From the NCBI GenBank assembly GCA_017617355.1, contig JAFZWI010000002.1, positions 19,640 to 83,639 of the forward strand: DNA of 64,000 bases. Reading direction: 5' to 3'. The stretch is from Salinivirgaceae bacterium (GTDB lineage Bacteria; Bacteroidota; Bacteroidia; Bacteroidales; SZUA-534). Shown in pieces: positions 21,485 to 63,095 of the stretch. The first letter of the stretch is position 1; every line of letters begins with the position of its first letter. The notes below the pieces were generated by a model. It made no database searches. It was not told the DNA's origin and worked only from the letters and a program-made list of their open reading frames with translations. The position numbers and the translations under genes are program-made.

Positions 21485-22591
21485 TTATTGTTCATCATCG
21501 GACGGCTCTGCCGGTGCGGTTTTGCCGCCGCCTTTAGCCATAGTCAGCACAATGCCGATTGTCTCTTTGTTTGCGTTGAATACGCGCATAAGCTGCCAAA
21601 AATCGTCAAACTCGCTATCGCTCAATGTTTTTAAGAAATCGCGAATCATCTTGTATTGGTCGGCGCGTGGGTCGTTGCTGTCCTCGTCGTTGTCGGCCTC
21701 AATAGGCAGCGTTTGGCTATCGTCAGGTTGTGAGAGTGCGCCTTTCAACGCCTCGCCGTCAATGCCGAACAAACCGCCAATGCCAGCGGCGTGGCGCATA
21801 GCAAAGCCCTCAATGCCCTTTGTCAATATGGCCGTTAGGCTTGTGCCGAACAAACTGGCTTCGGGGTGCAGCTTGCGTGTTTCCTCGCGGCTGCCCTCAA
21901 GCTCATATTCCAAATCTTCAATGCGCTCGTTGGCTTTCTCAATGCGCTTCTCATACTTTTCTATTTCAGCCTTTAGCTGGTCGCGTTCCTGCGTTCTCAC
22001 AGCAAGGTCGGCGGTGAGCTGGGCTATCTTCTCGTTCTTTTTCTCATCATCGTGGCGTTTTTCGTTAAGTCCGTCGCGAATGGTCAATATTTGATTCAAG
22101 CCGCCAGTGCCATCGTCAGTTCCAGCCAAACCGCCGAAGCCCATAAGTGTAAGCACGTTGGTTACTTGCTTAAACGCCTCAAACTGTGCGTTGGGCATTT
22201 GCGGCTGCGGTTGCGCGGTTGCCGGTTGTTCCTGCTGGTGTTGTTCTTCGCGGCGGCTTACTGGGTGGTTCTCATACGGTTCTTTAAGACATATTTCCTC
22301 ATCAAGTTTAACTTCATCGTTGCCGCGCCCTACCACTTTTACGTGAATATTGGCCGTTGTCGAATCTTTTGTTAGAGACAAAAGGTCGTTTTTGAATTTC
22401 TCGGTCAATTTGGCTCTTTCTTCGGGGCGGTCTTTATAGTTGTTGTAATGCTCCGAAAAACGTTGTAACTCCTTGTTAAAGCTGGTGTCAACAGCCCAAA
22501 TTGTGTAGCCGAACACCTTACCTTTAAGGCCATCGACAAAGTTTATGCACTTGTCGATTTTTGCGTTAATGTCTGCTAATGATTGTGCCAT
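21485..22591 (-). CDS. coiled-coil, acidic protein (scaffold-like candidate)
   Basis: 368 aa with a Q/P-rich linker, the long coiled coil KIAQLTADLAVRTQERDQLKAEIEKYEKRIEKANERIEDLEYELE and an acidic C-terminus. Confidence 0.45.
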   Translation of the reverse strand: MAQSLADINAKIDKCINFVDGLKGKVFGYTIWAVDTSFNKELQRFSEHYNNYKDRPEERAKLTEKFKNDLLSLTKDSTTANIHVKVVGRGNDEVKLDEEICLKEPYENHPVSRREEQHQQEQPATAQPQPQMPNAQFEAFKQVTNVLTLMGFGGLAGTDDGTGGLNQILTIRDGLNEKRHDDEKKNEKIAQLTADLAVRTQERDQLKAEIEKYEKRIEKANERIEDLEYELEGSREETRKLHPEASLFGTSLTAILTKGIEGFAMRHAAGIGGLFGIDGEALKGALSQPDDSQTLPIEADNDEDSNDPRADQYKMIRDFLKTLSDSEFDDFWQLMRVFNANKETIGIVLTMAKGGGKTAPAEPSDDEQ

Positions 22592-22616
22592 AATTGTTTG
22601 TTTTGTGTTGTTGTGC

Positions 22617-23045
22617 TTATTTCTTTCTTCGGTTCAGCACAATAGGCTCATCATCATCTTCAAGCCTAATGGGTTTAACCGGCGTAATCTTTATAAATTC
22701 GAGAACGTATCTCGGACAAGGTTCTTCGCGCTTCCAACCGTCAAGGCCGCAAGTCTTGATGGTGATGTTGCGCCGAAATAACTTGTTGATTCCGTTGCCC
22801 ATTGCCGCAATAGTGCGTTGGGTGGCTTCCAAGCAGGCGTTGGGCGATATTAGTTGCACTTTGGTAGCGTCGTCCACAATGTCGATGTCCGACGGACGAA
22901 TACCGCAAAGCACATAGCTGTCGTTGCCGCAAGTGATGTTTGTCAGTGTGTCGCTGACGAATATCTCTACTGGCGTTAGAACGGTGTCGTAGCCGTTGCG
23001 CTGAAACCTCTCTTGTTCCATCTTAATTATTTGTGCGTCAGTCAT
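22617..23045 (-). CDS. hypothetical virion-module protein
   Basis: 142-aa ORF; its start overlaps the upstream gene by 8 nt. Confidence 0.6.
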   Translation of the reverse strand: MTDAQIIKMEQERFQRNGYDTVLTPVEIFVSDTLTNITCGNDSYVLCGIRPSDIDIVDDATKVQLISPNACLEATQRTIAAMGNGINKLFRRNITIKTCGLDGWKREEPCPRYVLEFIKITPVKPIRLEDDDEPIVLNRRKK

Positions 23046-24088: not shown

Positions 24089-25192
24089 TTATGCTAATTT
24101 TTTGTAAATGAAAATCATAGCCAGCTTCCAGTTGGCAATGCTGACACCGTTGCCAGCTTTCAGCAAGTCCACGTTGCCGCATATTTCAAATGTGGCCTTT
24201 ATGTTCTTGATTGTCTTTTGCTGAAATTCATAAACAGCGTCGGCGTAGGGTATTCGGTTGGTAATCGACACAATGCCTAAATCGAAGCCTTTTGGCAGCT
24301 CTTGATTGTCGCCGGTTTCCATAAGTGCGGCAAGATTGATGTCGCAAATCTGCATAGGCTCAATTTCGCCTCTTGTTTTAGCCCCCTCGGTCAAGATTGG
24401 CGATGTGTAGTTGAAAACCACCATCTTTTCGGGTTCGTGGTCGAGGTTGATATTCTGCTCTTTTTCCAACACGTTGGTATTGAAAGTTATCGCGGCGTTG
24501 TTCAGCACTTTTTTTGTGAGTGCCAAAAGCAGATTCTCTCTTGTTTCATCGGCGGTGTTGCCCCAATCGGCGAATGTCGGAGCTTCAATATCAGCAATAC
24601 CGAGGCTGACAGCCTCTTGCTTTGTAAGGCTAACCGTAACACCATTGAGCCGTCCGTTTTCGTATGTTGCACCCTCAAACAAGGTTGCAACCGGCGCGTC
24701 GGACGCAAGATTAAAATCGGCCAGCTTTTCGCGAATTTCAGCATATTGGCTTGCGATAATATCCAATATGCGTTCCGTCATTTCCTCGGTTGTCGGGGTT
24801 GATTTGAGCGTAAACTCCTTAAACTCCACAAAATCGAAGCCGCCCGATTCGTCAACCGATTCGTCGCTGCAAACAAACACAATGTTGTACTCATTGTTGA
24901 CAGTGCCGCTGATTTTAATCTCACTGTTGTCAACGTTTAGATTCACCTCAAGCGCGCACTTTTGCCAATCGAACCTGCCAGCGCCGTAGGGCGTGGTGGT
25001 GCAAAACGGACAAATGGGCAGCTCTTGTGCTATCTGCTTGCCGTCTATTGCGATTGAAACGGTGTCCAGTTTGCCGCCGTAGTGAAAAATCTTGTCGTTC
25101 TTGTTTTCAAAAAACAAATAGCGGATAGACCTTACATTGTGCGGTGTAACGGTTATCACCTCGTCAGCCGATGATGGAATTGCGTAAAACAT
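24089..25192 (-). CDS. hypothetical virion-module protein (structural candidate)
   Basis: 367-aa ORF, beta-rich at both ends with a helical middle. No motif recognised. Confidence 0.6.
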   Translation of the reverse strand: MFYAIPSSADEVITVTPHNVRSIRYLFFENKNDKIFHYGGKLDTVSIAIDGKQIAQELPICPFCTTTPYGAGRFDWQKCALEVNLNVDNSEIKISGTVNNEYNIVFVCSDESVDESGGFDFVEFKEFTLKSTPTTEEMTERILDIIASQYAEIREKLADFNLASDAPVATLFEGATYENGRLNGVTVSLTKQEAVSLGIADIEAPTFADWGNTADETRENLLLALTKKVLNNAAITFNTNVLEKEQNINLDHEPEKMVVFNYTSPILTEGAKTRGEIEPMQICDINLAALMETGDNQELPKGFDLGIVSITNRIPYADAVYEFQQKTIKNIKATFEICGNVDLLKAGNGVSIANWKLAMIFIYKKLA

Positions 25193-26544: not shown

Positions 26545-27873
26545 TTAAAACAGTTCAATTTTCTTGACGGCTGATTTCCTGCGTTTTTTGCGTCCAACAC
26601 CGCTCAACTTTCCAGCAGCCGCGTCAGCAGCCGGTTTCCTTTTGAACAGTTTGTAGCCAACCACGCCAAGAACAACAGCGCCAAGACCTATTCCGCCCCA
26701 AAGCAGAAATTTTTTCTTTTTGTCGCCGGTTTCAGTTGTAACTGCTGGCGACGTAGCGTTTGCGTCCATAGTAGATTGATTTTGAATATTTAAATTTGAA
26801 TTAGCTTGCGTTTGTTGTGAGGCGGCAGGCTGTGATGTTGTGTTATTGACAGCGGCCTTTACCTCGTTTACCGCGTCGGCGGTCTCGGTAACGGTTCTTG
26901 CGCCACCAATCACCTTTTTAGCAATATCTTTTGCCTTGCTGGCTATATTTTTCAGCAAACCGTTCAGTGTCTCCTCATCGTCCAAGCCATCAATGCCGTC
27001 GAAGCCGTTAATGCCTTGCAGAGTAATGCGGAAACCATTGTCGGTGCGCTGAATGTTGATAACCTTGTTAGCTTCATAAACACCTTTCGATGTTACCTTA
27101 ATAGGGTTGCCGGCAGCGCCTTTTGTTGCGGCGGCGTTTTTGGCGGCTTTTAGGATAGCGCTTTTCAGCTTGCCATACAAACCGTCCATTACCTCCGGCT
27201 CATCAATTCCGTCGAAGCCATCAAAGCCGTCAGTACCCTCAAGGGTGATTGACAAACCTTTCGGTGTGCGCTCAACACTCACAATCTTATTAGCCTCATA
27301 GACTTTTGCGGCCTCGGCTTTTGTGAGTTTTTTTGTCGGCTCAACCTTTGCAACCTTAACAGCCGATTTTGCTTTGTCAGCGATTGCTTTTGGATAGCCA
27401 GTCATTTTAAGCTCTTGTGGTTTTGCTTGAACCACAGCTTTAGGCGTGGTTGAAATCTTTGCGACTTTTTGGGCAGCGTTAACAGCGTCTTTCACAGCAG
27501 CGGCTGATTGCGGTGCGGCAACCACTTCTTTGACTGGCGACACTATCGACTTGACTACTACGGTCTTTGCCGGTGCAGCCTTTTTGGTGCTGGTCTTTTT
27601 GCCGGTTACTTTCTTTACGGCTTTAGCCACGGCTTTTGCGGCTTTCACTTTTTTGCCGTCCAAGCCCTCAATGCCGTCAAGAGCCTGCACAAACTTGCCG
27701 TTGATAAAGCCCTCGTCGCCCTCGTAGTTCACGGCGTACCAGCCGTTATCATACGATTGGAGTTCCAATTCCGTGTTCGGCTCAAACACACCAATCATTT
27801 CGCCGTCCTTGCTGGGGAGCTTGCGAAAGGGTGCGCCTTGACCTGCTTCCGTTATGACAATTCCTTTTCCCAT
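26545..27873 (-). CDS. SH3b-domain protein with a K/A-rich linker, a duplicated beta/G-x-D-G module and a C-terminal TM anchor
   Basis: 442 aa. The N-terminus is SH3-like (FRKLPSKDGEMIGVFEPNTELELQSYDNGWYAVNYEGDEGFINGKFV). The internal repeat VYEANK..I.R...G..ITL.G..GFDGIDG occurs twice, and the TM segment is LLWGGIGLGAVVLGVVGYKLF. Confidence 0.65.
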   Translation of the reverse strand: MGKGIVITEAGQGAPFRKLPSKDGEMIGVFEPNTELELQSYDNGWYAVNYEGDEGFINGKFVQALDGIEGLDGKKVKAAKAVAKAVKKVTGKKTSTKKAAPAKTVVVKSIVSPVKEVVAAPQSAAAVKDAVNAAQKVAKISTTPKAVVQAKPQELKMTGYPKAIADKAKSAVKVAKVEPTKKLTKAEAAKVYEANKIVSVERTPKGLSITLEGTDGFDGFDGIDEPEVMDGLYGKLKSAILKAAKNAAATKGAAGNPIKVTSKGVYEANKVINIQRTDNGFRITLQGINGFDGIDGLDDEETLNGLLKNIASKAKDIAKKVIGGARTVTETADAVNEVKAAVNNTTSQPAASQQTQANSNLNIQNQSTMDANATSPAVTTETGDKKKKFLLWGGIGLGAVVLGVVGYKLFKRKPAADAAAGKLSGVGRKKRRKSAVKKIELF

Positions 27874-27876
27874 TTT

Positions 27877-30800
27877 CTAAATGTTTTGATTGTTACTTTG
27901 ATTATTGTTTCTGCTTCTAAAAACAAAGGCTAACAGCCCCAAACCTACCACGGTGGCTCCGCCTATTATGAATGTCTTTTTACTTATGCCGCCTTGCTGC
28001 GATTTCTGCTGCTGCTTTGGTTTGGCGGTCTGCATTTGCGTTTGTTCGCTCGGCGACAAATTCTGCTGTCCGTTGTTGATTATCGGACGCGAATCAATGT
28101 AATCTTGCTGTGGTTGTTGTTGCGGCTGTGCTTGCTCCGTTTGTTGCGGCTGCTGACTGTCGCCGCTGGAAACCGCTTCTTTTAGGTCGTTGTATGTGTT
28201 TACCGCGTCCGCAATATCTTTTGCCGCACTTGTAACATTTTTGAAAAAACCGCCAATGTTGGCACATATTGTGAATATTGAGCCGGACGCTGCGGTTGTC
28301 GCGGCGGCGGCGGTTGCGACCTCTCCTAACCCTTGTATCGAATCATATCCGTTATCGCACAGTCCCGATACAACCGCTACCGGCTGGCCGTCGGGAATGA
28401 ATATTTCGGCAAGCGACGAGATTTTTACATAACCGCTGTTTTTGCCGTCGGTGGTGCTGGCAGCAATCCAAGTGCCGTCGGTGGCGTTCTTGTTGTCAAT
28501 ATCAACATACAGCGCAGTACCTTTCGGGAGTTCCGCAACCTTGTTGGATTGGTCGCTGCCCCCCTCATACATTGTGGTAGCCTCTTTTGTCGTGCGTTGG
28601 TTAGACTCGGTTATTTCAAGCTCTTCTTTGTATTCAGCGCCTTTTTCAGCCGAAGCCTCATCGCTGGCAACAATACCCTTTGCCTCTAATTCGGCCTTAT
28701 CTTCGGCTATATCAGCGTTTAGTTCTTCTATAATCTCATCGTCGGCGTTAATATCCTTACAAAGAGCCTCTATTTCCCCTTTTGATGTGGGATTGTCAGT
28801 TCCCTTCCATTTTTTTGACGCTCCTTTTTTCAGCGCGGCCAATAGCTTTTCCTCTTTACCGAGAAATATTTTGCAGAACATATTGCGTATGAAATCATAC
28901 GATTTTTTCTGCGCCTCATATTCTTCGGGTGTTATACCGTATTGACTGATAGCTTCTTCTTCGGTCATTGAGCCTAAATAGCTGCGACTGGCCATACGGA
29001 ACATATTTAGCCTAAAGGCGATGAGTAAACCGCCCTTGATTAACAGTGTCAGTGGGTTATAAGCCCACACCGCTGTTAATACTTTTTTTGTTAATTTAAG
29101 AGCAACTTTGGTTACTTTCTTTGTCAGCTTCCAAGCAGTAACCGTCGGTTTAACAACGGTTTCTTTAATAATCGTTTTTGCCGGTTCGTAAACCGCGTTT
29201 TTTGCCAAGTCCTTTGTTTCCTTTACGACGGTTTTAATCGGCTCGGAAACCGTGTTCTTATAAGCGTCCGACATTACTTGTGTCGTTGTTTTAACAACGG
29301 ATTTTGTCGGTTCAACGATTGTTTTCTTTACCGTGTCTTTAACTGCGGTTGCGGTAGTCTTTGCAATCTCTTTTGTCGGCTCGACAATCGTATTCTTCAC
29401 CGTATCTTTTACGGCTGTCGCGGTGGTCTTTGCAATTTCTTTTGTCGGTGCGACAATGGTTTTTTGTACGGTATCCTTTACAGCCGTCGCGGTAGTCTTT
29501 GCAATTTCTTTTGTCGGCTCGACAACGGTTTTTTTGACCGCTTCCTTTGTAACGTTTACAGTAGTCTTAATTGGTTGCGTAACCGCCGACTTTGCTTGCG
29601 AAACGGCCTTCTGCAATGATTCTTTTGCGGCCGCTTTATTGCCCGCAGCGACCTGCACACCAGCCTTAACAACATTCGCGGCGGCTTTAGTGGCGTTAAC
29701 GGTGCTTTGTACCGCTGCCTTACCAGTGCTAACGGCGGCTTTTATGCCAGTTTGTGCGGCGTTGGCCGTTGTTTTAGCTACCGTTTTGGCGGCGCTGGCC
29801 GTTGTTTTGGCGGCAATTTTAGCCGCGTCTGCCGTTGTTTTGGCTACTGTTTTGGCGGCGCTGGCCGTTGTGTTTGCGGCTATCTTTGCGGCATTAGTTG
29901 TGGTTTTTGCGACATTTTTTGCTGCCGACGCGGTTGCTTGTGCGCCGGACTTAACCATATTAGCCGTTGTTTTTGCAGCGGTTTTTGTAACGTTTGCCGT
30001 TGTTTTAGCTACTTGTTTTGTCGCGTTCGCTGTTGATTCCGCAACATTTTTAACCGACGAAGCAACGTTGGTTGCCGCTTTGGTTGTTGCTTTGGCGACG
30101 GCTTTAGTGGCTTTTTTAATTGCATTCTTTAATTTTCCGTTGAGTTCTCCCAAGCCATCGAATCCATTGAGTGTCTCGTATTTAGAGACTAAAGCGTTCA
30201 TTGCCGCGTCGTTACCGATAACTGGTATAAGCTGTGCAATCATTTGACGCACGGCGTTAGCCTCGGCCTCGGTGTCGTAGAATGCCAGCGGTTGAGCTGC
30301 TATTGCTCCACTCAATCGGGCAAAATAGCGGCGGCAGTTGTCAATGTTGTCCTGCACTGTCAACCCCTCATCAGCATTGTAGGCAAAATCAACGCCATAC
30401 ATCAAGAATTGTAAATCGTCATCAATTCCCGAAAGGCCGTTAAGTCCTTGCAGTGAGGCGATTGAGATTGTTACAATCGGTACGCGGATAGTCTTGGTGC
30501 GGACATATCCGTTTTTAATCTTCGTTTGGCGAAGATTCTTGGTTGTCGGTTTGCGATTTGCGCCTACATTCTGCCTAATTGTGGCTTTCAGCTTGCGAGT
30601 GAATGTATTGTCGTTCACCAAATCAGCGTCTTTAGAAGCTACATTGGCGAATGTTGTTGTCTTTTTCAGTCGGTTGAAAAGACCGCGCTTGTTGGGCAGG
30701 GTCTCAACAGCCCCATTCTTCAAAACGCGCTGTGTATCGGGGTCGTAGTTTTCGCCCGGCTCAAGAAAATGAGCGTCGCTCTCGTCGTTGGCGAGGCGAA

Positions 30801-32810: not shown

Positions 32811-32910
32811 GTTTCCATAATCAAACTGGCAACTTTTCGGTTTATCGCGGCCTGAAATTGCGGTTTCCGCACTTGAGAGATTGTATTTGCCGACAATGAC
32901 ATTTTTTTTC

Positions 32911-32918: not shown

Positions 32919-32948
32919 CATACACAAACACAATAAAACACAAACACT

Positions 32949-51303: not shown

Positions 51304-51325
51304 CAACAATCTAAAAATCAACAAT

Positions 51326-53554: not shown

Positions 53555-53610
53555 CGGCATTGCAAACATAGCAAATAATTCAATATGAAATCATTAAATA
53601 TCAATAAAAA

Positions 53611-56600
53611 ATGAAACTAATTGAAATTCAAGAACAATTCTTTAGGTTGAAAAACCGCAACGGCGTGTTTTTCTGCACCGAGGCCGAAACCGACGCTTGC
53701 CTAAACGTTAAGGCGGTTCACTACATTCAAGCCGACAGCAAAATGCGCTTGCCGCAAGACTGGCAAAACGCACGGACAATGACCCTGCGCGGCGACGATT
53801 TGCAAAACATTGTGCCGATGGGCGGCGGTTTGGGTATGGCCTACCAGCCAGCCTCAAAAATCCGCAAACTCGACACACAAACGCCCGACAGTATGGGCAA
53901 CGACATTCACAGCGCCCTTGCCAAGCTGACAAAGGCCGTGGGCGGCGATGTTACCGATTTTGTTTGTGAGCGTCTGCAATGGAGCAGAGAGGAAATTGAG
54001 GAACGATTGTTTGCCGAGCAAGTTGACGCGGTGGCGCTCATCATCTACAACTTTGAGGCGCGAGGCCAAGCTATGATTGTCGGCGACCAAACCGGCATTG
54101 GCAAAGGCCGTGTTGCTTCCAGCATTATACGCTACGCCATTGTTCACAACCTTATTCCAGTCTATTGCACCGAGAACGCCGGACTTTTCAGCGACAACTA
54201 CCGCGACTTGTGCGATATTGGCTGCGCCGACCTAAACCCGTTCATCATCAACAGCAGCACAAGCGGAACAACCAACGCCTGCATAACCACATTGGACGAA
54301 AACGATGAAAACGTTGTTGTTCACCGGCCAATCACTAACAAAAAGGCTAAAGAGGCTATTTTTAGGTCGGGCAAACTGCCAGCCGGTTACGACTACGTGC
54401 TGACAACCTACTCCCAGCTCAAAAACGCCTACAAAAAGACCAAAGACGGCACGGAAGAAGGCAGCGACATCAGCAAATACTACTTTTTGCTCGACCTTGC
54501 GCCTAACGCCGTGTTCATTTTCGACGAGAGCCACAATATTAGCGGCTCGAAAGCTGTGTCGGAAGAATGGTGGAATCCCGACGCGCCTATGACGATGGGC
54601 GGCTCAAACCAGTTCTATTGCTTCAATGAGCTTTGCAAAAAATCGAAATACGCCGTGTTCCTTTCGGCCACATTCGCCAAACGCCCCGAAAACCTTGTGG
54701 TTTACGCCGGACGCACTTGTATTATCGAGGCCGGACTGAAAGATGTAGAGCTGATTCAAGCCATTAGCGACGGCGGCGAGGCTTTGCAGGAAATCATATC
54801 AAGCGATATTGTTGGCGAGGGGCAGATGATTCGCCGCGAGAGTATCTACAAGAATATCAAGGTCAACTACATATATCTTGACAAAACCGGCGAAAAAGAG
54901 TTCGGCACACCCGACTTGGAAAAGCAGCACCGCAGTATGAGCGACTACGTTACCGACATTATCAACGAGATTAACAAGTTTGAGCAAGACTATGTGCAGC
55001 CGATTATCGACAATATGAACAGTAACGATTGGGGCGACCGCACAAGAAAAACCAGCGAAAAAACCGGCGCAAAACACACGCCGTTGTTCTCAAAGCTGTT
55101 TAACATTGTCAACCAGTTGCTTTTCTCAATCAAGGCCGAGGCGGTTGCCGACCACGCCATACGCCGTTTGAACGAGGGCAAAAAGGTTGTTATCGGCCTT
55201 TCATCGACAATGGAAGCGTTTGTAAAAACGCTGCTTGACGAGGACGATGATGATGATAAGGACGGACTGAAAGGATTGTTGGGCATTGACTACGAAAAAG
55301 GCGAGATTTCGTGCGATTTCGCGCTTGTTTTGGATAAGGCGCTCGACAACACACTGAAATACACCACCGACGGCGAGGGCGGCTACCACGTTAAAGACGC
55401 TATTGATGTCAGCGAATTGTCGCCCGACGGCCAAGATGAGTATTTGCGGCTGAAAAACCGCATTGCCGCCGCTTCGTCGGGCATTAGCATTTCGCCCATT
55501 GATATAATCGTGCAGAAGATTGAGGCCGCTGTCAACCCCGAAACCGGCGAACACTGGCGCGTTACCGAGGTAACTGGCCGCAAGCACTATATCCGCTTTA
55601 CTAACAAACAAGGCACACGCGGCGTTATTGAGCCGCGCAAGAAACTGACGCGCAACATTGCTTTCTCTCAATTCCAAAACAATCAAAGCGATGTGCTGAT
55701 TATCAACGCCAGCGGCGCAACCGGCGCGTCGGCTCACGCCACCACCAAAAACACCAATTTGAGGCCGGAGCAAGTGAAACCGCGAGTGATGATTATTGCA
55801 CAAACCGAACTTGATGTGAACAAAGAGGTGCAGAAGCGAGGCCGCATTAACCGCACCGGCCAAATCAAGACTTTGCCGCCGTCGTATGACTACCTTATTT
55901 CGGCAATTCCGGCAGAGAAGCGACTGATGATGATGTTGCAGAAGAAACTCAAATCGCTGGACGCTAACTCCACCTCAAACCAAAAACAATCGACCACGGT
56001 TATTGATGTGCCGGACTTTTTCAACAAATACGGCAACCGTATCGCTTACGACTATTTGATTGAAAACCCCTTAATCAACGCCAAACTGAACGACGCGGCT
56101 AAAGCGCCGGAAAAGGAAGATGGCAAGGCTGATGTTCCGGGCGATTTTCTAAAGAAAGTGTCGGGCTACGTGCCGTTGCTCACCTGCGAGGAACAAGAGG
56201 ACTTTTACAACACCATTCTCGACAACTACTTGAAATACATTGACAACCTAAAGAAAAAAGGCGAATACGACTTGGAAGTGGAAGCAATGGACTTGGACGC
56301 GGAGCTGATTGGTGAGCTGAAGCCGCTTGTTGGCGCTTCGGCTGGCGAGAGCAAATTCGCCGACGCTGCCTATCAAGGCACTTACCGCTGCAAGGTTCTG
56401 CGTAAGCCCTACTCACAAGGCGAGGTTACAGCAATGTTGCGAAACTACTGCGGCAACTCCGACGGCAAGACAATAGCCAAAACGCTGGCCGACGATTTCC
56501 GCAAATACTACACCGATGAGCTTGAAGCCGACCGACTGGCAATGAAAGAGGCCGGACTGAAAGCCATTGAGGACGCACGTAAATCGATAGCCAAAAAAGG

Positions 56601-57717
56601 CGGCAGCGAAGCTGACAAAAACGAGGCCGAGGCTCTTGTAAAGGAAAACTACCGCCAAATGTGGGCTGACGCAGAGGCCAAAATCGAGCGAAAGCGAAGC
56701 AAGGCGCGGTTTATTGAGTTCTTCTATGCAGGACGCGCTTGCATTGTCGATGGCGACACCAACACAAGGGCGATTTGTTTGGGTGCGGAGATTGGCAACA
56801 AGGCCAAAAACAAATACGCTCCATCAAATATTTCAATATCGTTTGCCGTGGCAAGCAGCGTTAAATCGCTGGAGTACAACATTGCCGACAAAGACACACG
56901 CGAGCTGGAAGCCATTATGGGCTTGTCGGCTGGCATTAGCGGCGGCTACTACGACACCACCGACTACGGCCAAAAGTATCTTGAAAACTGGCCGCAATAC
57001 TGCAAAGAGGCAACCAGCGACACCGAGCTTCGGGTAATCATTGTGGGCAACATTCTGCGCGGCTACAAGAGCGCACCCGAACACTCAAAACTCATTTCGT
57101 TCACCACTCACGACGGCAACGTGCTGAAAGGTCTGCTTGTGCCGAAACAAGCCTTTGACGACGATAAAGGCAACAGCACAACAACCAAGCTGCTTATGAC
57201 AAAATACTCCGTGCTGAAATTCAAACCGGTTATGGAGCGAATGTTCGGCAATTACGGTGAGAAGCAAACAGTCAACCTCACACGCGGTATGAAGCTGGAT
57301 ATTGAGGGCGGCTCATTCACTCTGCGCTGTACGGTGCAAGCCACATTCAAAAAGCTGGAAAAACTGCAAGACTGGCTCGACATCAGCCCCGACGGACGCG
57401 GTTTTGTTTCAAAGAGCGACAACTGGCAAATCCGTTTCTACGACCGCGACCGATTCGACGCTGTTTGTGAATTGCTTGAAAAATACCAATTCCAAGTTGA
57501 ATTGCAGCCTATTGAGGCCGAGCGCTATTTCGGAAAGCAGACGCACACGCTCAAACAAGGCAACTGGAAACCGCTGAAAACCGACCCAGCCAACATTCCG
57601 GCCACCGGCGAGAACGGCAGCGCCCAATACAACAACGGCAAACGGACATTGCAGCTTGCCAAAGCAAAGGAAAAGGCGCGACAACTGTTGAAATACGCAC
57701 AGCGATACACACGATAA
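53611..57717 (+). CDS. strawberry-notch-type SF2 helicase (DarB helicase-like)
   Basis: 1368 aa with GDQTGIGKGR (motif I, Sno-type), IFDESHNISG (DExH), INASGATGASAHA and RGRINRTGQ (motif VI). The C-terminus ends with KRTLQLAKAKEKARQLLKYAQRY. Confidence 0.8.
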   Translation: MKLIEIQEQFFRLKNRNGVFFCTEAETDACLNVKAVHYIQADSKMRLPQDWQNARTMTLRGDDLQNIVPMGGGLGMAYQPASKIRKLDTQTPDSMGNDIHSALAKLTKAVGGDVTDFVCERLQWSREEIEERLFAEQVDAVALIIYNFEARGQAMIVGDQTGIGKGRVASSIIRYAIVHNLIPVYCTENAGLFSDNYRDLCDIGCADLNPFIINSSTSGTTNACITTLDENDENVVVHRPITNKKAKEAIFRSGKLPAGYDYVLTTYSQLKNAYKKTKDGTEEGSDISKYYFLLDLAPNAVFIFDESHNISGSKAVSEEWWNPDAPMTMGGSNQFYCFNELCKKSKYAVFLSATFAKRPENLVVYAGRTCIIEAGLKDVELIQAISDGGEALQEIISSDIVGEGQMIRRESIYKNIKVNYIYLDKTGEKEFGTPDLEKQHRSMSDYVTDIINEINKFEQDYVQPIIDNMNSNDWGDRTRKTSEKTGAKHTPLFSKLFNIVNQLLFSIKAEAVADHAIRRLNEGKKVVIGLSSTMEAFVKTLLDEDDDDDKDGLKGLLGIDYEKGEISCDFALVLDKALDNTLKYTTDGEGGYHVKDAIDVSELSPDGQDEYLRLKNRIAAASSGISISPIDIIVQKIEAAVNPETGEHWRVTEVTGRKHYIRFTNKQGTRGVIEPRKKLTRNIAFSQFQNNQSDVLIINASGATGASAHATTKNTNLRPEQVKPRVMIIAQTELDVNKEVQKRGRINRTGQIKTLPPSYDYLISAIPAEKRLMMMLQKKLKSLDANSTSNQKQSTTVIDVPDFFNKYGNRIAYDYLIENPLINAKLNDAAKAPEKEDGKADVPGDFLKKVSGYVPLLTCEEQEDFYNTILDNYLKYIDNLKKKGEYDLEVEAMDLDAELIGELKPLVGASAGESKFADAAYQGTYRCKVLRKPYSQGEVTAMLRNYCGNSDGKTIAKTLADDFRKYYTDELEADRLAMKEAGLKAIEDARKSIAKKGGSEADKNEAEALVKENYRQMWADAEAKIERKRSKARFIEFFYAGRACIVDGDTNTRAICLGAEIGNKAKNKYAPSNISISFAVASSVKSLEYNIADKDTRELEAIMGLSAGISGGYYDTTDYGQKYLENWPQYCKEATSDTELRVIIVGNILRGYKSAPEHSKLISFTTHDGNVLKGLLVPKQAFDDDKGNSTTTKLLMTKYSVLKFKPVMERMFGNYGEKQTVNLTRGMKLDIEGGSFTLRCTVQATFKKLEKLQDWLDISPDGRGFVSKSDNWQIRFYDRDRFDAVCELLEKYQFQVELQPIEAERYFGKQTHTLKQGNWKPLKTDPANIPATGENGSAQYNNGKRTLQLAKAKEKARQLLKYAQRYTR

Positions 57718-57739
57718 TCGAACCTAAATACTTAATACA

Positions 57740-59602
57740 ATGATTACAAAACAAAATCTAAAAAGCGAATTTGAAAACTACAAACAGTTTTTAAAGAACG
57801 ATGAAATGCGCCAAAAGGTGCAGGAAGCTATCGAGATAAGCGAGTTCTACGGCGAGGACACCGACATAACACGCGCCGTTGACGCTATTTGCGAAATGGT
57901 GAACCGCTTTATCGACAAGGCCGACAAGTTTAAGCCCACAACGGCGAAAACACCGGCTGCAAAAAAGACCGAAAAGCGCAAGACGCTGGCCGACTATAAG
58001 TTTGCAAACAAATTTATGTGCGAGAGGCAGAAGCCGGTTGTGCGCGAGGGCTGGAGCGAATTGGAAAGCACCATTGCGCGGCTCGACAAGCAGCTGGCCG
58101 AAATGCCGAAGCTCTACAAACAAGAAAAGTTGGGCAAAAAGGCTATTGTGTACGCTCACTATTTCTTTGGCTCGACCGACATTTTTGTTACCGAGGCCGA
58201 CGATGAGCTGATGTTCGGTTACACAATTTTGAACGGCGACTGTCAAAGCAGCGAGTACGGCAACCAGTCGATTGAGGAAATAACCAACAGCAAGTATTGT
58301 GAGCTTGATTTCTATTGGGATAACAAGACACTGGAGCAAGCCCTATACGACTGCCACCCCGACTATTTCCCCGAACCTAAAACCGATGAACCGACCGAAA
58401 CCGACGAGGCCAAAGCGCGGCGCATACGTATTGCCGAGGCCGAGGCCGAAGCCGCCCTTGCCCTGCTGGAGCTTGTCAACCTTTCGGGCGTTGATGTGGC
58501 CGAAAGACCGCGAACAACCGACCTATTCGGCAATGAGCTGGAGCGCGACCGCTGGCAGAAACGCTGGGACGCACGGCGCAAAAAATACATTTACACCGAC
58601 AACGACGGCGAAGAATGGTACAAGAACGAGCGCGGCCACTATTGCCTGCTTAATGGCAACGATAGCGAGGATATACGCGACCACGCCGTAAACATTTTGC
58701 GCAACGAATTTCCGCAAGCGAAATACCGCGACGAGATTGAAGAATTTGTCGAAACAAGAGATGAGGACGAATTAAATGAGGACGATATAATTGACGATTT
58801 TATCGGCTGGCTTGGCGACGATATTGTTTATTTCCTTTGGGATAGATTTCCCGACTATCAAGACGAAGCCGACGAGTTCATTAACTCCGGCCATTGGGAC
58901 GATAACGTGAGCCGTTACGAAAACTTAAAAGCCTTTAAAAAGTGGCTCGATGACGAAATAGGCGAAACCGTAGGACACGGAAAGTTGTTTGATATTGAGG
59001 AACTGACCGACACCACTGGCCGCGTTACCCCTCTTTATAATATCGACAATAAAAATGATTATTTCAACCGCGAGGACTTGTCGTTTGTTATGAGGGAGCT
59101 GGGAGATTATCTGCCCAAACACAGCAAACACCTTGAGCGCGTTTGGATAGACGAAAACGACACCTACCGATTTGAGTTTGGCGAGGGTGCTTATACGGAA
59201 AACGCACCTGCCGACAAAAAGTGGTATATAAACGCCTTTAGAGCTATACAAGAGCGATTCCCAAGCGTATCGGACAGCTTTATTGAGGAATTTGTAGCCG
59301 ACGGCTGGGATAACACCGCCGAACTCTACGACAATTTGAAAGCCTTTAAAGAGTGGCTTGATGATAAAACCGGCAACACCGACGGCGGCGAGCTGTTTGA
59401 AGTTGGCTGGGAAGATTACGGCGCACAAGAGCGTGGCGTGTTAAGGCCGCTTTACACTATTAACGACCAATGGGGTGAGGACTACTCATTTGCAGAGCAA
59501 TGGCTGCGCGACACACTGGCCGTTGACAACCTTGCAATCGACCGTATGTGGATAAATGAAACCGACGGAACTTACGGATTCTTAACAAAATATGCGAAAT
59601 AA
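57740..59602 (+). CDS. DUF2958-like N-domain protein with a triplicated acidic module
   Basis: AIVYAHYFFGSTDIFVTEADDELMFGYTILNG...EYGNQSIEEI is DUF2958-like. It also has the linker RIRIAEAEAEAALALLEL and three copies of FP...EF[VI]...W[DG]...Y[ED]NLKAFK.WLDD. Confidence 0.6.
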   Translation: MITKQNLKSEFENYKQFLKNDEMRQKVQEAIEISEFYGEDTDITRAVDAICEMVNRFIDKADKFKPTTAKTPAAKKTEKRKTLADYKFANKFMCERQKPVVREGWSELESTIARLDKQLAEMPKLYKQEKLGKKAIVYAHYFFGSTDIFVTEADDELMFGYTILNGDCQSSEYGNQSIEEITNSKYCELDFYWDNKTLEQALYDCHPDYFPEPKTDEPTETDEAKARRIRIAEAEAEAALALLELVNLSGVDVAERPRTTDLFGNELERDRWQKRWDARRKKYIYTDNDGEEWYKNERGHYCLLNGNDSEDIRDHAVNILRNEFPQAKYRDEIEEFVETRDEDELNEDDIIDDFIGWLGDDIVYFLWDRFPDYQDEADEFINSGHWDDNVSRYENLKAFKKWLDDEIGETVGHGKLFDIEELTDTTGRVTPLYNIDNKNDYFNREDLSFVMRELGDYLPKHSKHLERVWIDENDTYRFEFGEGAYTENAPADKKWYINAFRAIQERFPSVSDSFIEEFVADGWDNTAELYDNLKAFKEWLDDKTGNTDGGELFEVGWEDYGAQERGVLRPLYTINDQWGEDYSFAEQWLRDTLAVDNLAIDRMWINETDGTYGFLTKYAK

Positions 59603-59633
59603 CTTATTTACAAACCTTTAAATTAAATTTAAA

Positions 59634-60725
59634 ATGAAACTACAAGGAAAAACATTGGCAGAGGACATCAAGAAAGTGCAACTGCCAGCCGAACTGCAAA
59701 ACTTTTACAACGACCACATTGCAAAGAATGTGGACTTGTACGGCGAAGCGCCGACCGTTACCAAACTGATTGACGCTTGGCTTGAAAAGGCCAACGCCTA
59801 TCTTGAAGCAAACGCCCCGAAAGCCGAGCCGAAGAAAGAAGAACCAAAGGCCGAGCCAAAAAAGGACACCGAACACGTAAAGGTGGTAGCTCCCAAAAAG
59901 CCGCAACCAAAGGCCGAGCCTAAAAAAGAAGAGCCGAAAGCAGAGCCAAAGGCAGAGCCGAAAGCAGAGCCTAAAAAGGCCGGAAAAAAATCGGGTAAGA
60001 AAGTGCCTGCCGCTTTATTCAAGACCGGCGCGTGGGTGATTGACAACAACAGCGAAAAGGCTGGCGTTATCAGCGAGAAACTGCGCTACGACGATGAGCG
60101 CGGCTGCTGGCTCTATCATATCGAATATGTCGGCTCAAAGGAGCAATCGCTTGTAGCCGAGTGCGACCTTGCACGAACACGCGCACCGCGCACCGTAGCC
60201 ACCACTGGCGAACTTGTGCCGGAGCTGTCGGCTGAAATCAAGATTATCAAGCGTTACATCGCATTGGACGGCAAAAAGTTGAGCAAGTTGGGCAACGAGC
60301 CGCGCCTTGCGCTTGCAGCCTTGCAGAAGATGATTATCAACAAGCAGATTCGCAAGACCAGCAAGTATGCCAAGTATATCAACGATATGCAGGACAGCCT
60401 CATTAAGCTTGTCAACAGCCGTGCAAAGGACGCTGAAATAACAATCAACCACATCGACGAACTCCGCAAGATTGTCGCCAAGCAGAACATCAGCGAAATC
60501 TCAAACATATCGCGAGCTTTCGTCGCCCTTATCGGCAAAGACAACAAGCAGAAAGAGGCCAAATCGCTCTACGAAAAGTTGTTAAAGTACAATTTCAAAG
60601 GCGACGATTCAGCCGAGGCCGCAACGATGAAAAAGGCGCTGAAAGCCTACATCGACGGCGAGAACGAAACCGTTTACGCCACAGCGCGTGAGCTGCAAGG
60701 TATTTTCGGCCTTGCCGGTATTTAG
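59634..60725 (+). CDS. K/E/P-rich protein with an SH3-like module
   Basis: 363 aa with PKAEPKKEEPKAEPKK repeats. FKTGAWVIDNNSEKAGVISEKLRYDDERGCWLYHIEYVG; the C-terminus is ARELQGIFGLAGI. Confidence 0.6.
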   Translation: MKLQGKTLAEDIKKVQLPAELQNFYNDHIAKNVDLYGEAPTVTKLIDAWLEKANAYLEANAPKAEPKKEEPKAEPKKDTEHVKVVAPKKPQPKAEPKKEEPKAEPKAEPKAEPKKAGKKSGKKVPAALFKTGAWVIDNNSEKAGVISEKLRYDDERGCWLYHIEYVGSKEQSLVAECDLARTRAPRTVATTGELVPELSAEIKIIKRYIALDGKKLSKLGNEPRLALAALQKMIINKQIRKTSKYAKYINDMQDSLIKLVNSRAKDAEITINHIDELRKIVAKQNISEISNISRAFVALIGKDNKQKEAKSLYEKLLKYNFKGDDSAEAATMKKALKAYIDGENETVYATARELQGIFGLAGI

Positions 60726-60781
60726 TTAATAACCGAGTGCAGGGGGCGTTTCGGCGCTCTCTGCATTTTTTAAAACAACGA

Positions 60782-62173
60782 ATGATGAACAACAAACAAA
60801 CGGCCTTGTTTGGCATTGACGACCGTCCGCAACCGAAATACAAGGTCGGGCAAATGGTTCGCGTATCGTCGTGGGGGCAATACGATTTTGCTTACATAAA
60901 GTCGGTTAAATGGTGGAATTTGTTTGATACCTACAAATACGAACTGACAGCCTTTCACGGCGGCGATTACCACGAAAAGAAAGAATACGACATTAGGCCA
61001 ATTGGTAGTTTTGATTTGAAATACGATGAAGAAAAGGCATATACAATCAACCCGCCCGAATGTGAGGTGGGCGACAAAATTTTCGCAAAGAAAGTTAATC
61101 GGACATACACGGTAAGAGACATTAACCTTTATGGCGTTGACCACAAATACAAGTACAACAAACGCGGACTACGTGTTGTGTCAAAATCAACAGCGTCCTA
61201 CATATACCGTTTGGAAGAAACTGATTCGCCGGTATGGAGTGGTGAATTTAAAGTGCTTCCCAAAGAATCTCCCGACAGCGACAAATCCAAACGCATACGC
61301 ATTGCCGAGGCCGAAGCAGAGGCCGCGCTTGCGCTGCTGGAGTTAGTGAAGATTGGTAATGAGCCGAAGCGCGGTGATGTTTACACGCTGCCCAAAAAGT
61401 TTGAAAAACCCGACGCTTGGTTAAGCGCAAGCGACAAGGATAGATACGATTTTTATTCAGTCGCCGATGTTGTCAGCAACGGCAATATCATTGTTATTGA
61501 TGAGCAAACATATAAAAGCGAATGGTATTCTGCTGACGAATTTAAACGCGCTGGCTTCAAATTTCACCACCACCAACCCGATTACGGAAAGGTTGGCGGC
61601 ATAAGCGGAATCGAAAGAAAAAATGTCGAAATTCACCGCCGGAGCAAACACGGACAAATGGGCGAGATTGACAACTTTGAAGAACGGCACGCGCTGTATC
61701 TTAAACTGCTGAACGACAGCAACTATTATGATGTGATGTTCAAACCCGAAAACGGCGGTTTGAAAGCTGTGCATTATGGGCATAACTTTGACAAAGAAAA
61801 AGGTCATTACGAAAAAGAAGTGATGAGATATGCTTATCAAAATGGTTATTGCGTCATATTAGAAAATGAGCAAGGAAAAAATATCGGCGAGAACTACACG
61901 GAAGGGCTTTGGAATGAAGATGTATTTGAGTTAGCTACTTGCGAAAACGCAAATAGTAACAACAATAACATTGTCAATGGTCTAAAGCATTGCGCGTCAA
62001 AAGACGATACAAAAACAGCAATTTTATATTTCTATAAAGGCGTTTTTATCGAAGCCGATGTTGATAGAGCAATAAGGCGTTATAATGGGCTAAAAAACAC
62101 GCTAACCTATTATAAGGCGTTTACTGCCATTTATATAGTTGATAAGTGGGGTAATATTTATAAGATGAGATAA
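60782..62173 (+). CDS. two SH3-like modules + AEAEA linker + AT-rich C-terminal domain of unknown function (effector candidate)
   Basis: Start at MMNNKQTALFG. It has YKVGQMVRVSSWGQYDFAYIKSV and CEVGDKIFAKKVNRTYTVRDI, then RIRIAEAEAEAALALLEL. The C-terminal region of about 270 aa has no recognised motif. Confidence 0.6.
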   Translation: MMNNKQTALFGIDDRPQPKYKVGQMVRVSSWGQYDFAYIKSVKWWNLFDTYKYELTAFHGGDYHEKKEYDIRPIGSFDLKYDEEKAYTINPPECEVGDKIFAKKVNRTYTVRDINLYGVDHKYKYNKRGLRVVSKSTASYIYRLEETDSPVWSGEFKVLPKESPDSDKSKRIRIAEAEAEAALALLELVKIGNEPKRGDVYTLPKKFEKPDAWLSASDKDRYDFYSVADVVSNGNIIVIDEQTYKSEWYSADEFKRAGFKFHHHQPDYGKVGGISGIERKNVEIHRRSKHGQMGEIDNFEERHALYLKLLNDSNYYDVMFKPENGGLKAVHYGHNFDKEKGHYEKEVMRYAYQNGYCVILENEQGKNIGENYTEGLWNEDVFELATCENANSNNNNIVNGLKHCASKDDTKTAILYFYKGVFIEADVDRAIRRYNGLKNTLTYYKAFTAIYIVDKWGNIYKMR

Positions 62174-62225
62174 AAAAAGGTATGGGAGGCTCCACCGAAA
62201 GTGGTACACCCCCCACAACGCAAAT

Positions 62226-63095
62226 ATGAAAATAATATTTGAAACCGCAAAACAAAATCGGAAAAAAATGATACTCGACAAATTCAACCCCAAATTCAAC
62301 CCGACACCGGCGCAGAAACGCGCATATCGGGCGGAAATGAACAAATACATTCGCACCGCGCACCCAATTCAGCCAATCAACGGCTTGGACGGTTTTGAGC
62401 CGCGCCACAACGAGCCAGCCGAGCCGCAGCCAGTCAAGCGCAAGTTGCAGAAAAGCGACCAAATGAATAGTATGGACTTTATGCAGGAAAAGTTTGAAAT
62501 CATACCGCTTACTGGCCGGTGGAAGAAGCTAATCGGCTATCCTCAATCGGACAGCAAGATTATGTTTTATGGCAAGCCCGGAAACGGGAAAAGCACGCTG
62601 GCGCTCCAGTTTGCCGGTTACACCTCGCGGACGCTGGGCAGCAAAACGCTCTACGTTACCAGTGAGGAACCGTTCTCGTACACGTTGCAAGAGAAATTAA
62701 AGAGGCTGGGCGTAGCTAACCCTAATTTGACAATTACCGGCGAATTTCCTGCCGATGTCAGCAAATACAAGTATATCTTCATTGATTCGGTTAATAATTG
62801 CGGAATGAAACCCGAAGATGTAAGGAATTTGCCGCCCGACCATTTTTACGTGTATGTTTTTCAAACCACCAAAAGCGGTGCGTTCCGTGGCTCACAAGAG
62901 TATTTGCACGATGTTGACGCGGAAATAAAAGTCGAGGCAATGAGAGCCGTGGCTGGCAAGAATCGTTTTGGCGGCTACGAGGAAATTGAGGTGTTGCCGC
63001 AGCGCAACGAGCCGTCAGCCGCGAAGCCGAAGCCAAAATCGAAACGCGCCAAAGGCCGCGAACTACTGGCGCAGACGCTGGCAGGGTTGAAATAA
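62226..63095 (+). CDS. RecA/KaiC-superfamily ATPase
   Basis: Walker A YGKPGNGKSTLALQFAG and Walker B-like YIFIDSVN. The N-terminal extension is basic and contains PINGLDGFEP. Confidence 0.65.
   Translation: MKIIFETAKQNRKKMILDKFNPKFNPTPAQKRAYRAEMNKYIRTAHPIQPINGLDGFEPRHNEPAEPQPVKRKLQKSDQMNSMDFMQEKFEIIPLTGRWKKLIGYPQSDSKIMFYGKPGNGKSTLALQFAGYTSRTLGSKTLYVTSEEPFSYTLQEKLKRLGVANPNLTITGEFPADVSKYKYIFIDSVNNCGMKPEDVRNLPPDHFYVYVFQTTKSGAFRGSQEYLHDVDAEIKVEAMRAVAGKNRFGGYEEIEVLPQRNEPSAAKPKPKSKRAKGRELLAQTLAGLK

Follow-up and report, generated by a model that had tools for sequence, protein, structure and literature searches.

The stretch of DNA analysed here, referred to as the window, comprises 64,000 nucleotides of contig JAFZWI010000002.1 from a Salinivirgaceae bacterium (assembly GCA_017617355.1, positions 19,640 to 83,639 of the forward strand) and is a prophage adjoining purA. 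Late genes lie on the minus strand (34640 to 4501), and early genes, together with an operon previously labelled DarB-like, lie on the plus strand; open reading frames (ORFs) are named below by their lower coordinate. The subject of this report is a short peptide of glycine and hydrophobic residues that is present in proteins of both gene sets. The original prediction wrote it as [LI]-x-G-[ILF]-x-G-[ILF]-[DG] and proposed that it marks either a maturation step, such as a prohead-protease site, or a common docking element.

Copies of the peptide in the late arm, and the gene that heads this operon, are located as follows.

31262 to 32293, minus strand: membrane-anchored transglutaminase-like Cys-His-Asp protein (Pfam Transglut_core), heading the late operon
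31225 to 31242, minus strand: IQFLNG, a half-motif of 27877 (Q7, L9 and G11 invariant in the ortholog alignment)
30412 to 30456, minus strand: 27877 motif site 1, SLQGLNGLSGIDDDL, the best window match to the junction motif described below, aligned by hhalign to the ATPase-family linker
30130 to 30174, minus strand: 27877 motif site 2, TLNGFDGLGELNGKL, directly before an Ala/Lys-rich basic helix
27640 to 27684, minus strand: 26545 motif site 1, ALDGIEGLDGKKVKA, between the SH3 domain and an Ala/Lys-rich segment
27193 to 27237, minus strand: 26545 motif site 2, GTDGFDGFDGIDEPE, in an internal duplicate of a YEANK...ITL.G module
26980 to 27024, minus strand: 26545 motif site 3, TLQGINGFDGIDGLD, followed by EETLNGLLKN and a basic helix
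26575 to 26610, minus strand: 26545 C-terminal L-S-G-V and basic tail, KLSGVGRKKRRK (L423 and G425 invariant in 7/7 orthologs)
22106 to 22150, minus strand: 21485 site A, TLMGFGGLAGTDDGT, before the central coiled coil
21749 to 21826, minus strand: 21485 site B, GIEGFAMRHAAGIGGLFGIDGEA, after the coiled coil and conserved in close orthologs only

Both 27877 and 26545 end in a transmembrane helix and contain Ala/Lys-rich segments, which in 27877 take the form of repeats; 26545 also has an SH3 domain (Pfam SH3_3, residues 17-63). Six syntenic loci were recovered for assessing the conservation of the late-arm sites. At site 2 of 27877, L-x-G-x-L and the following KK are invariant in seven orthologs of 33-92% identity, and the family pattern ahead of the basic helix, [E/T]-L-N-G-[K/R]-L, has columns that are invariant down to 22-33% identity. 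The half-motif IQFLNG, which is the probable true N-terminus of 27877, is doubled in distant orthologs (IQYLDGIDIQYLDG). A homolog search with the N-terminal 420 residues of 27877 found nothing. Within the same ORF, 33-nt and 69-nt tandem DNA repeats (29216-30035, minus strand) encode 11- and 23-residue Ala/Lys/Thr-rich repeats (AKTTANxxKxA), similar to amphipathic repeats that bind lipids or DNA.

Sites 2 and 3 of 26545 are products of an internal duplication. Site 1 is conserved down to 40% identity, and site 3 is conserved in relatives L008, L001 and L003, degenerate in L005 and lost in L006 and L007, the most distant pair, in which the sites of this protein decay. At site A of 21485, L147, G154, L155 and G157 are invariant in seven orthologs down to 22% identity, and the string LMGFGGLAG of this protein holds columns invariant down to 22-33%. 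The transglutaminase-like protein has an N-terminal transmembrane anchor and a motif-like string of its own (SLMGVNGLGLT, 31778-31810); C279, H310 and D325, as well as L169, G170 and L171, are invariant in seven orthologs, and its gene heads the late operon in 7/7 relatives. Another product of this arm, 25970, is a small membrane protein in which GLxG strings are abundant beside transmembrane helices; the peptide quoted from it in the original prediction overlaps another conserved string, LPG[IV]GD.

On the plus strand, the motif is found in a pair of genes whose homologs are mostly fused.

59634 to 60725, plus strand: N-terminal helical domain partner of the ATPase, fused to it in most homologs
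60690 to 60725, plus strand: extreme C-terminus of 59634, ELQGIFGLAGI followed by the stop codon, corresponding to the junction motif of the fused family
62226 to 63095, plus strand: RadA/DnaB-like RecA-fold ATPase, the SMS/RadA module of polyvalent proteins (Pfam KaiC/AAA_24, PHROG ATPase)
62373 to 62417, plus strand: N-terminal extension of 62226, PINGLDGFEPRHNEP, a second, degenerate copy of the junction motif

A full HMMER search with 59634 as the query returned 256 clusters, most of them with a 59634-type domain fused to a 62226-type ATPase (the fusion is seen in more than 100 database clusters). At the junction the fused proteins read L-x-G-L-x-G-[LI]-A-G-[IV], in most cases 48-65 residues (about 53) upstream of Walker A, and this motif was found in at least 100 of 150 representative clusters. 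Among 40 fused homologs with a mean identity of 26%, G257 never varies and L252, G254 and L255 each reach at least 90% conservation, which is comparable to the P-loop. A genome scan with a 9-sequence alignment, an alignment of 40 sequences having proved too divergent, located proteins of the 59634 and 62226 types with the conserved motif across 80 Bacteroidota loci; of six loci sampled, one has genes of a conjugative transposon (TraM, DUF4138).

The window copies are remnants of this junction, to judge by the alignment. Since G53, L54 and G56 of 62226 align with the invariant G-L-x-G columns of the fused homologs (homolog P0057 reads GLNGIFEPKH where 62226 has GLDGFEPRH), the C-terminus of 59634 and the N-terminal extension of 62226 are two copies of one ancestral motif; insertion of gene 60737 has separated the two halves, each of which keeps a copy. 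The string ELQGIFGLAGI is unchanged in 59634 orthologs of 67-68% identity, and the 62226 ortholog at locus L009 retains LDGIEP only. Stand-alone 59634-type proteins from several lineages keep the motif unchanged and end 0-3 residues later, and some end in LNGL...KKK, resembling the C-terminus of 26545.

The AlphaFold2 (AF2) model of a fused homolog has a predicted local distance difference test score (pLDDT) of 91. In this model the motif forms a short helix (residues 249-258, pLDDT about 79), with a non-helical stretch before it and a lower-confidence linker after it. The top Foldseek matches are Streptococcus pneumoniae RadA (8rxc), full-length DnaB (4esv) and T7 gp4 (1cr0), each with a probability of 1.00, and RecA and Rad51 paralogs are further fold neighbours. 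By tblastn, the identity to annotated RadA is 26-28%. The sequence of 62226 shows both Walker A (GKPGNGKS) and the RadA signature KNRFG, and together with the predicted fold they place it in the RadA/Sms-DnaB branch of RecA-fold ATPases. It departs from canonical RadA architecture: no C4 motif or Lon domain was found by Pfam, the protein (289 residues) ends about 40 residues past KNRFG, and the modelled N-domain of the fused homolog is a helical domain differing from the N-terminal region of RadA.

Translation of the main ORFs confirmed each quoted peptide in the ORF named for it. The pattern as first written was only partly borne out: it matches seven positions in four proteins (21485, 26545, 27877 and 53611) and nothing elsewhere, so that the peptides quoted from 51326, 59634, 62226 and 25970 do not conform to it. 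Comparison with within-protein shuffles, the control suggested with the prediction, gave 7 observed matches against 0.04 expected for the strict pattern. The shorter form G[ILF].G[ILF] was observed 20 times against 2.5 expected (approximately 8-fold), in 8 proteins against 2.4 expected. Counted as separate sites, it occurs 8 times in the upstream late proteins (0.46 expected) and 5 times in the seven proteins of the 49366-63095 operon (0.55 expected, p = 0.0003), and no site falls in the remaining approximately 10,100 residues of window proteins. The codons differ between copies of the motif; the signal is therefore at the protein level, and a DNA-level repeat was ruled out as its origin. The core is L-x-G-[LI]-x-G-[LIF]-x-G-[IV]-[D/E], a short, selectively maintained peptide.

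An independent matrix of 14 columns was built from 74 junction motifs in the database, none of them from the window and with the window's closest relatives excluded, and the whole window proteome was scanned with it, counting sites of at least 9 bits. The top match is at residue 299 of 27877 (ASLQGLNGLSGIDD, 22.9 bits), followed by residue 283 of 26545 (ITLQGINGFDGIDG, 15.2 bits, site 3), the C-terminus of 59634 (ATARELQGIFGLAG, 10.7 bits, the motif being cut off by the stop codon) and residue 393 of 27877 (ETLNGFDGLGELNG, 10.2 bits, site 2). Against 0.04 expected, the upstream late proteins have three such sites (p < 0.005 within the window); the other window proteins, 10,324 residues in all, have none, and nor do 49366, 51326, 53611, 57740 or 60737. 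Orthologs of 27877 score 21.4 bits (L003) and 22.6 bits (L008) at the same place. Site 1 of 26545 scores 8.0 bits in the window, and its orthologs reach 12.3 bits (L003) and 10.0 bits (L005); site A of 21485 scores 1.9 bits in the window versus 12.8 bits in the L008 ortholog. Across 333,020 residues of unrelated ATPase-family neighbours, six matches of at least 11 bits were observed versus 1.25 expected, five of which fall in polyvalent-operon proteins. When the 27877 family was aligned with the ATPase family by hhalign, the motif was the sole aligned stretch; homology between the N-terminal region of 27877 and the 59634 domain was rejected, with a probability of 5% and an alignment limited to the motif.

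Because the matrix contains no window sequences, this is a non-circular confirmation of one linear motif common to both gene sets. Matches between the sets extend over 11-14 residues, include polar positions (Q/N after L, and a terminal D) and reach 15-23 bits. The proposed link between the late arm and the DarB-like operon holds for 27877 and 26545 on one side and 59634 and 62226 on the other; it does not extend to 51326 or 53611. Conservation in relatives gives a similar picture, with the sites of 27877, 26545 and 21485 kept in position and those of 51326 and 53611 and the quoted 25970 peptide poorly kept or not kept. By sequence comparison, we grade the copies in 27877, 26545 and 59634, and that in 62226 by alignment, as robust, the copy in 21485 as a conserved though looser variant, and those in 51326, 53611 and 25970 as weak or non-conserved.

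The label DarB-like does not describe the plus-strand operon well. It contains an N6-methylase (49366, with NPPF visible), a Strawberry-notch-type helicase (53611; Pfam AAA_34 and Helicase_C_4) and a protein ending in a PBECR3 nuclease domain (51326), and orthologous operons additionally carry ART-PolyVal, Kinase-PolyVal, LPD3 and MuF_C. This array of class-typical effector domains, broken into separate genes in the window, identifies it at the domain level as the kind of polyvalent-protein array described by Iyer et al. 2017 (PMC5512222). The likeness to P1 DarB consists of the methylase-helicase domain dyad only, and the two domains are fused in 33 relatives. As a class, polyvalent proteins are packaged and delivered with DNA (PMC5512222), and by analogy those of the window may be as well. 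The motif instances in 51326 and 53611 are weak.

52970 to 53014, plus strand: 51326, KESGIDGLDDDLIEM, between a basic helix tag and the PBECR3 nuclease domain
55255 to 55299, plus strand: 53611, DKDGLKGLLGIDYEK, in an acidic loop between the helicase lobes

The 51326 site scores 18.4 bits with a matrix trained on the late arm and is unmatched by the independent matrix. The N-terminal part of this family is conserved and its C-terminal domains are swappable (PBECR3, MuF_C or MutS_I); only 2 of its 21 members have the motif after the helix tag. Close homologs of 53611 keep L-x-G-L-F-G only (LQGLFG or MNGLFG), and the loop is absent from a 60%-identical homolog (L011). The operons at L009, L010 and L011 show no motif enrichment beyond the 59634-type site, and the motif was rejected as a universal capsid-targeting tag of polyvalent proteins since in these three it is confined to the 59634 family.

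A basic or alternating amphipathic helix tag (RIRIAEAEAEAALALLEL, or RLxxAKAKA..L.YAQ) is present at C-termini or domain junctions of 49366, 51326, 53611, 57740 and 60737, at about 51037-51102, 52895-52960, 57637-57705, 58421-58483 and 61292-61345 (plus strand). The DNA at 58401-58479 and 61272-61350, in the helix-tag region, is 77% identical. Most polyvalent modules in relatives end in such a tag (RLxLAKAKAKA..L type), which among polyvalent proteins is more widespread than the glycine-hydrophobic motif. A keyword search of the full text of PMC5512222 turned up a description of neither the junction motif nor the helix tag. The first approximately 60 residues of 57740 (57740-57920, plus strand; MITKQNLKSEFENYKQFLKNDEMRQKV...) have homologs at the N-terminal end of many 59634-family proteins, indicating a leader domain common to different modules. 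Viral and metagenome contigs scanned with the 57740 protein yielded nothing.

The surrounding virus is probably more surprising than the motif. A tRNA-Lys(TTT) gene (2536-2609, plus strand) lies directly upstream of a Bacteroidetes-type integrase (3041-4267, plus strand) and forms the left attachment side. A second copy of the tRNA 3' end is absent from the window, which places attR beyond position 64000; the element, starting at about 2500, is thus at least 61 kb in size. Terminase, portal, HK97 capsid, tail tube and prohead-protease families were not found in Pfam and PHROG scans of the large late ORFs. The capsid candidate is instead of another type.

24089 to 25192, minus strand: candidate major capsid protein, double jelly-roll-like (AF2 pLDDT 83.8; Foldseek)

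Foldseek matches this model to an iridovirus capsid protein with a probability of 0.99, to the capsid proteins of Paramecium bursaria chlorella virus 1 (PBCV-1), PM2 (P2), phiCjT23, Sulfolobus turreted icosahedral virus (STIV) and Fadolivirus with probabilities of 0.75-0.97, and also to a tectivirus GC1 protein. TM-scores to the capsid proteins are modest (0.3-0.36), and the double jelly-roll (Bamfordvirae-type) assignment is accordingly held as likely, short of certain. The family has 21 relatives among 5.8 billion sequences. A tblastn search of the capsid protein against phages, comparison of the capsid-protein and 25324 family profiles with PDB sequences and PHROGs, and a megablast of both arms against cultured phages each found nothing. 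An FtsK/HerA packaging ATPase was not found within the window, which ends before attR. Walker A is convincing in two proteins only, the DnaC-like 41580 and the RadA-like 62226; 53611 has a P-loop NTPase domain by Pfam only, and a Walker A match in 14084 was dismissed, as it lies at a doubtful GTG-start N-terminus. The candidacy of 62226 itself as an FtsK/HerA-type packaging ATPase was rejected, since its fold neighbours are RadA, DnaB and RecA.

On the modelled capsid fold, the element is something other than a tailed phage. It probably has an inner membrane, with which the membrane features of 31262, 27877, 26545 and 25970 are in keeping. The element seems to be a temperate Bacteroidales virus of the double jelly-roll type, far above the sizes of 7-18 kb reported for prokaryotic double jelly-roll viruses (PMC5894146). 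Nothing relevant on double jelly-roll viruses in combination with Bacteroidales was found in the literature searched.

Several other features of the element were recorded. Within 38754-39737, an ORF containing DUF6291, positions 39005-39311 (plus strand) hold seven copies of a 12-nt unit (AATGAAAATGTA) together with 45/57-nt repeats, possibly iterons or an origin inside a replication-initiator-like gene. Tandem repeats of 33 nt (CGGAAAAGTTTTGG...) occupy 32698-32810 in the AT-rich gap upstream of the late operon; the 156-residue ORF that overlaps them (32675-33145) is probably no gene. In the ORF of a fibre or spike protein of 1122 residues (8890-12258), the C-terminal, zinc-ribbon-like part contains an 81-nt unit (9042-9284, minus strand) twice in perfect form and once diverged. 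True collagen repeats are present in the fibre genes 6047 and 12270; a collagen-like Gly-X-Y triple helix was rejected for the motif, whose arrays comprise only 3-4 triplets with hydrophobic X. Two GNAT acetyltransferase genes (15134-15655, minus strand, and 63319-63894, plus strand) and, in relative L001, a HipA/HipB-like toxin pair between the early and late arms (973-2459) are probably accessory cargo.

A compact relative of the virus module, more distant than the six syntenic loci, is carried by the Persicobacter psychrovividus plasmid pPP10 (NZ_AP025302.1, L096/L097), a 53-kb ParAB/Rep plasmid that may be a plasmid-prophage. Its late module runs directly into the methylase, Strawberry-notch helicase, N-domain, ATPase and amidase genes, and a homolog of 25324 and a capsid candidate of 401 residues are also present. 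In an ORF of 771 residues that spans the record origin, a transglutaminase-like domain is joined to a 27877-like protein; SGIDFDD directly follows the catalytic domain, and LLGIDD...ELDGLGFF stands ahead of a basic helix, the same place as site 2 of 27877. A 197-residue motif-rich membrane protein of this plasmid scores 14.9 bits with the independent matrix. In L022, a Bacteroidales metagenome-assembled genome, the order is polyvalent genes, N-domain/ATPase fusion, integrase, early genes and transglutaminase-like gene; in L032, another such genome, the genes for the N-domain and the ATPase come directly after a 21485-like gene and a lysis gene (DUF6549). The ATPase module is thus physically linked to structural genes in L022, L032 and pPP10, and the gene orders of the first two indicate that it is stable in this virus group, with the order circularly permuted between relatives.

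We read the motif as a protein-protein docking or linker element rather than a cutting site, with the ATPase as the partner and the late proteins acting in trans, and give this reading a probability of roughly 35%. As to kind, it fits best among inter-domain or oligomerisation linkers, possibly with mimicry in trans. Its home would be the linker between the 59634-type N-domain and the 62226-type ATPase, about 53 residues before Walker A. DnaB and T7 gp4 have a linker helix here, which packs onto the adjacent subunit. The membrane-anchored 27877 and 26545 carry copies at module boundaries, usually beside basic Ala/Lys-rich helices, and these copies may engage the same groove as the ATPase's own linker, much as BRC repeats mimic the FxxA polymerisation motif of Rad51. 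The ATPase/polyvalent-protein module would in this way be tethered to membrane proteins of the inner virion as particles assemble or DNA is delivered. Retention of a terminal motif by stand-alone N-domain proteins is expected if the peptide must still bind in trans. Of the two readings in the original prediction, docking is the better fit, the motif lying where DnaB and T7 gp4 carry their docking helix, and binding is proposed from that position. A further step, in which a virus of at least 61 kb, several times the size of any described prokaryotic member, lacks FtsK/HerA and uses in its place the ring ATPase, tethered by the peptide to the inner membrane proteins, with peptide and ATPase also loading or delivering the anti-defence polyvalent proteins along with the DNA, seems quite unlikely.

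Several observations weigh against docking. The partner groove is proposed by analogy. The minimal motif is modelled as a helix, and the late-arm arrays (GFDGFDGID) are too rich in Gly and Asp for one, so that the two forms may bind differently. The other polyvalent proteins at L009, which is in the same genome as L001, lack the motif, and it is therefore no general cargo tag. The distant orthologs in L006 and L007 have largely lost the copies of the SH3 protein. Finally, the ATPase family is common at loci with no virus structural genes within 10 kb, indicating that most of its evolution took place without late-protein partners.

Docking is favoured over its rivals because cleavage is disfavoured and a pure boundary element is hard to reconcile with so long and restricted a match. 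That match is the difficulty for a convergent structural boundary element, in which glycine-hydrophobic helix caps, hinges or membrane-interfacial segments would have arisen with no common partner or enzyme. All sites are indeed at domain ends or between helices, the AF2 model shows a terminal helix and then a break, and similar strings occur at other junctions (EGLLGLEGL at the RadC C-terminus, MLGFNGLGAP after an ALAL helix). The membrane protein 25970 and those of pPP10 are full of GLxG strings beside transmembrane helices, and the 51326 and 53611 sites turn over fast. A generic cap would, however, be expected in the window's other approximately 10,000 residues, where there is none; the match spans 11-14 residues with polar positions, at 15-23 bits; and the ATPase-family motif is conserved like the catalytic P-loop. 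We consider such convergence possible, if doubtful. Chance, through post-hoc pattern picking in low-complexity, internally duplicated proteins, would account for listed peptides that fail their own pattern, and the events are fewer than listed, since sites 2 and 3 of 26545 are a duplication and the 59634 and 62226 copies derive from one site. The significance obtained with the independent matrix, and sites that keep their positions in relatives down to 22-40% identity and in pPP10, leave it with very little probability. A Ca2+-binding or membrane-active segment, with the acidic arrays (G-F-D-G-F-D-G-I-D-E) binding Ca2+ or inserting during entry, would suit carriers that end in transmembrane helices in a virus that probably has an inner membrane, and GIGGLFGIDGE resembles Gly-rich fusion peptides, though it is no more than a resemblance. 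This would leave the same motif in the linker of a soluble helicase-like ATPase unexplained; the arrays carry too much acidic charge for classical fusion peptides, none of the known Ca2+ motifs (EF-hand, RTX, dockerin) matches them, and we regard this reading as improbable.

Proteolytic processing could take two forms. The prohead-protease site first envisaged, a class known from tailed phages (T4 L/I-x-E, HK97 and phiKZ types), is at odds with the absence of HK97-type head families noted above and with the double jelly-roll capsid candidate; no S78, U9, U35, S80 or assemblin-like gene beside portal, scaffold and HK97 capsid genes was found with Pfam and PHROG. Alternatively, the transglutaminase-like protein 31262 may cut or transpeptidate at the motif, releasing modules of virion and polyvalent proteins. 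Cysteine proteases of double jelly-roll viruses (adenain, and pS273R of African swine fever virus [ASFV]) cut at Gly-containing motifs, and LapG, a transglutaminase-like protease, cuts a short motif in LapA. The late-arm sites lie at module boundaries (between SH3 and Ala/Lys-rich segments, on either side of the coiled coil and immediately ahead of basic helices), the gene tops the operon in seven relatives with an invariant triad and its own LMGVNGLGL, and in pPP10 the domain is fused to a 27877-like motif carrier with SGIDFDD after the catalytic domain. Processing of polyvalent proteins before packaging also has a precedent in P1 DdrB (PMC5512222). Against either form, cleavage at the extreme C-terminus of stand-alone proteins would be pointless, removing just 0-3 residues, yet the motif is strictly conserved there. 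Among the 80 Bacteroidota loci that keep it, a transglutaminase-like gene lies within 10 kb at one only (L022), and one of the six sampled carries conjugative-transposon genes; conversely, L006 and L007 retain the enzyme but lost most SH3-protein sites. The adenain consensus is matched by one site only, and the transglutaminase-like protein could equally be a cell-wall hydrolase. Cleavage is disfavoured on account of the C-terminal conservation, the loci without a nearby transglutaminase-like gene and the poor fit to Gly-directed viral proteases, and we consider processing by 31262 unlikely. A transglutaminase Gln-donor tag (LQG) was rejected, as the Q position varies in the family (N, R, Q, A, S, E).

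If the motif is a docking element, it shows how injected polyvalent proteins, a class that is poorly understood, and their RadA-like ATPase are coupled to the virion. Read as a processing site, it would instead give the PRD1-adenovirus lineage its first described maturation-protease specificity from a bacterial member. A motif so simple and highly conserved could be used as a search signature for the module and its partners across Bacteroidota. The carrier appears to be a rare, undescribed virus lineage, which would widen the range of the PRD1-adenovirus lineage in bacteria.

Among known systems, adenain cleaves at (M/L/I)XGG|X and (M/L/I)XGX|G, and the ASFV protease at GG|X. The motif sites resemble these in that a hydrophobic residue and Gly recur two positions apart, and the carriers resemble their substrates in being inner, core-like basic proteins and a scaffold-like coiled-coil protein. 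Only 1 of 13 sites fits the adenain-type consensus (TLMGF|G), the second Gly of L-x-G-hydrophobic-x-G being one position too far. The candidate enzyme, moreover, has a transglutaminase fold, unlike the Ulp1/adenain-like fold, and the C-terminal conservation speaks against cleavage. The element as a whole is like PRD1 (Tectiviridae), PM2 (Corticoviridae) and FLiP/phiCjT23 in having a double jelly-roll-like capsid gene beside small membrane-protein genes, and like PM2-type prophages in being temperate and integrated. It differs from membrane-containing double jelly-roll phages in its size (at least 61 kb versus 7-18 kb; PMC5894146), its collagen-like fibre genes and polyvalent operon, and the lack of a detectable FtsK/HerA gene in the window. 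The operon shares its N6-methylase, Strawberry-notch helicase, PBECR3 nuclease and SMS/RadA-like ATPase with the polyvalent proteins of PMC5512222, which describes both a methylase-helicase dyad typified by P1 DarB and a Bacteroidetes SMS/RadA module; unlike the polyvalent systems of tailed phages and conjugative elements, it consists of separate genes and is hosted by a double jelly-roll virus.

The closest parallels to the motif are with the ring helicases. As with the linker helix of DnaB and T7 gp4, a conserved peptide lies between an N-domain and a RecA-fold core, about 40-55 residues before Walker A, and the predicted fold of the fused homolog matches DnaB, gp4 and RadA. The sequence, L-x-G-L-x-G-L-A-G-I, is unlike either the DnaB linker or G-F-x-T-A, and the subunit contact, unlike those of the DnaB and Rad51 systems, is proposed here by analogy from a monomer model. 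To our knowledge, in-trans copies on virion membrane proteins have no precedent. The presence of motif copies on other proteins nevertheless resembles, formally, the mimicry of the Rad51/RadA FxxA motif by the BRC repeats of BRCA2.

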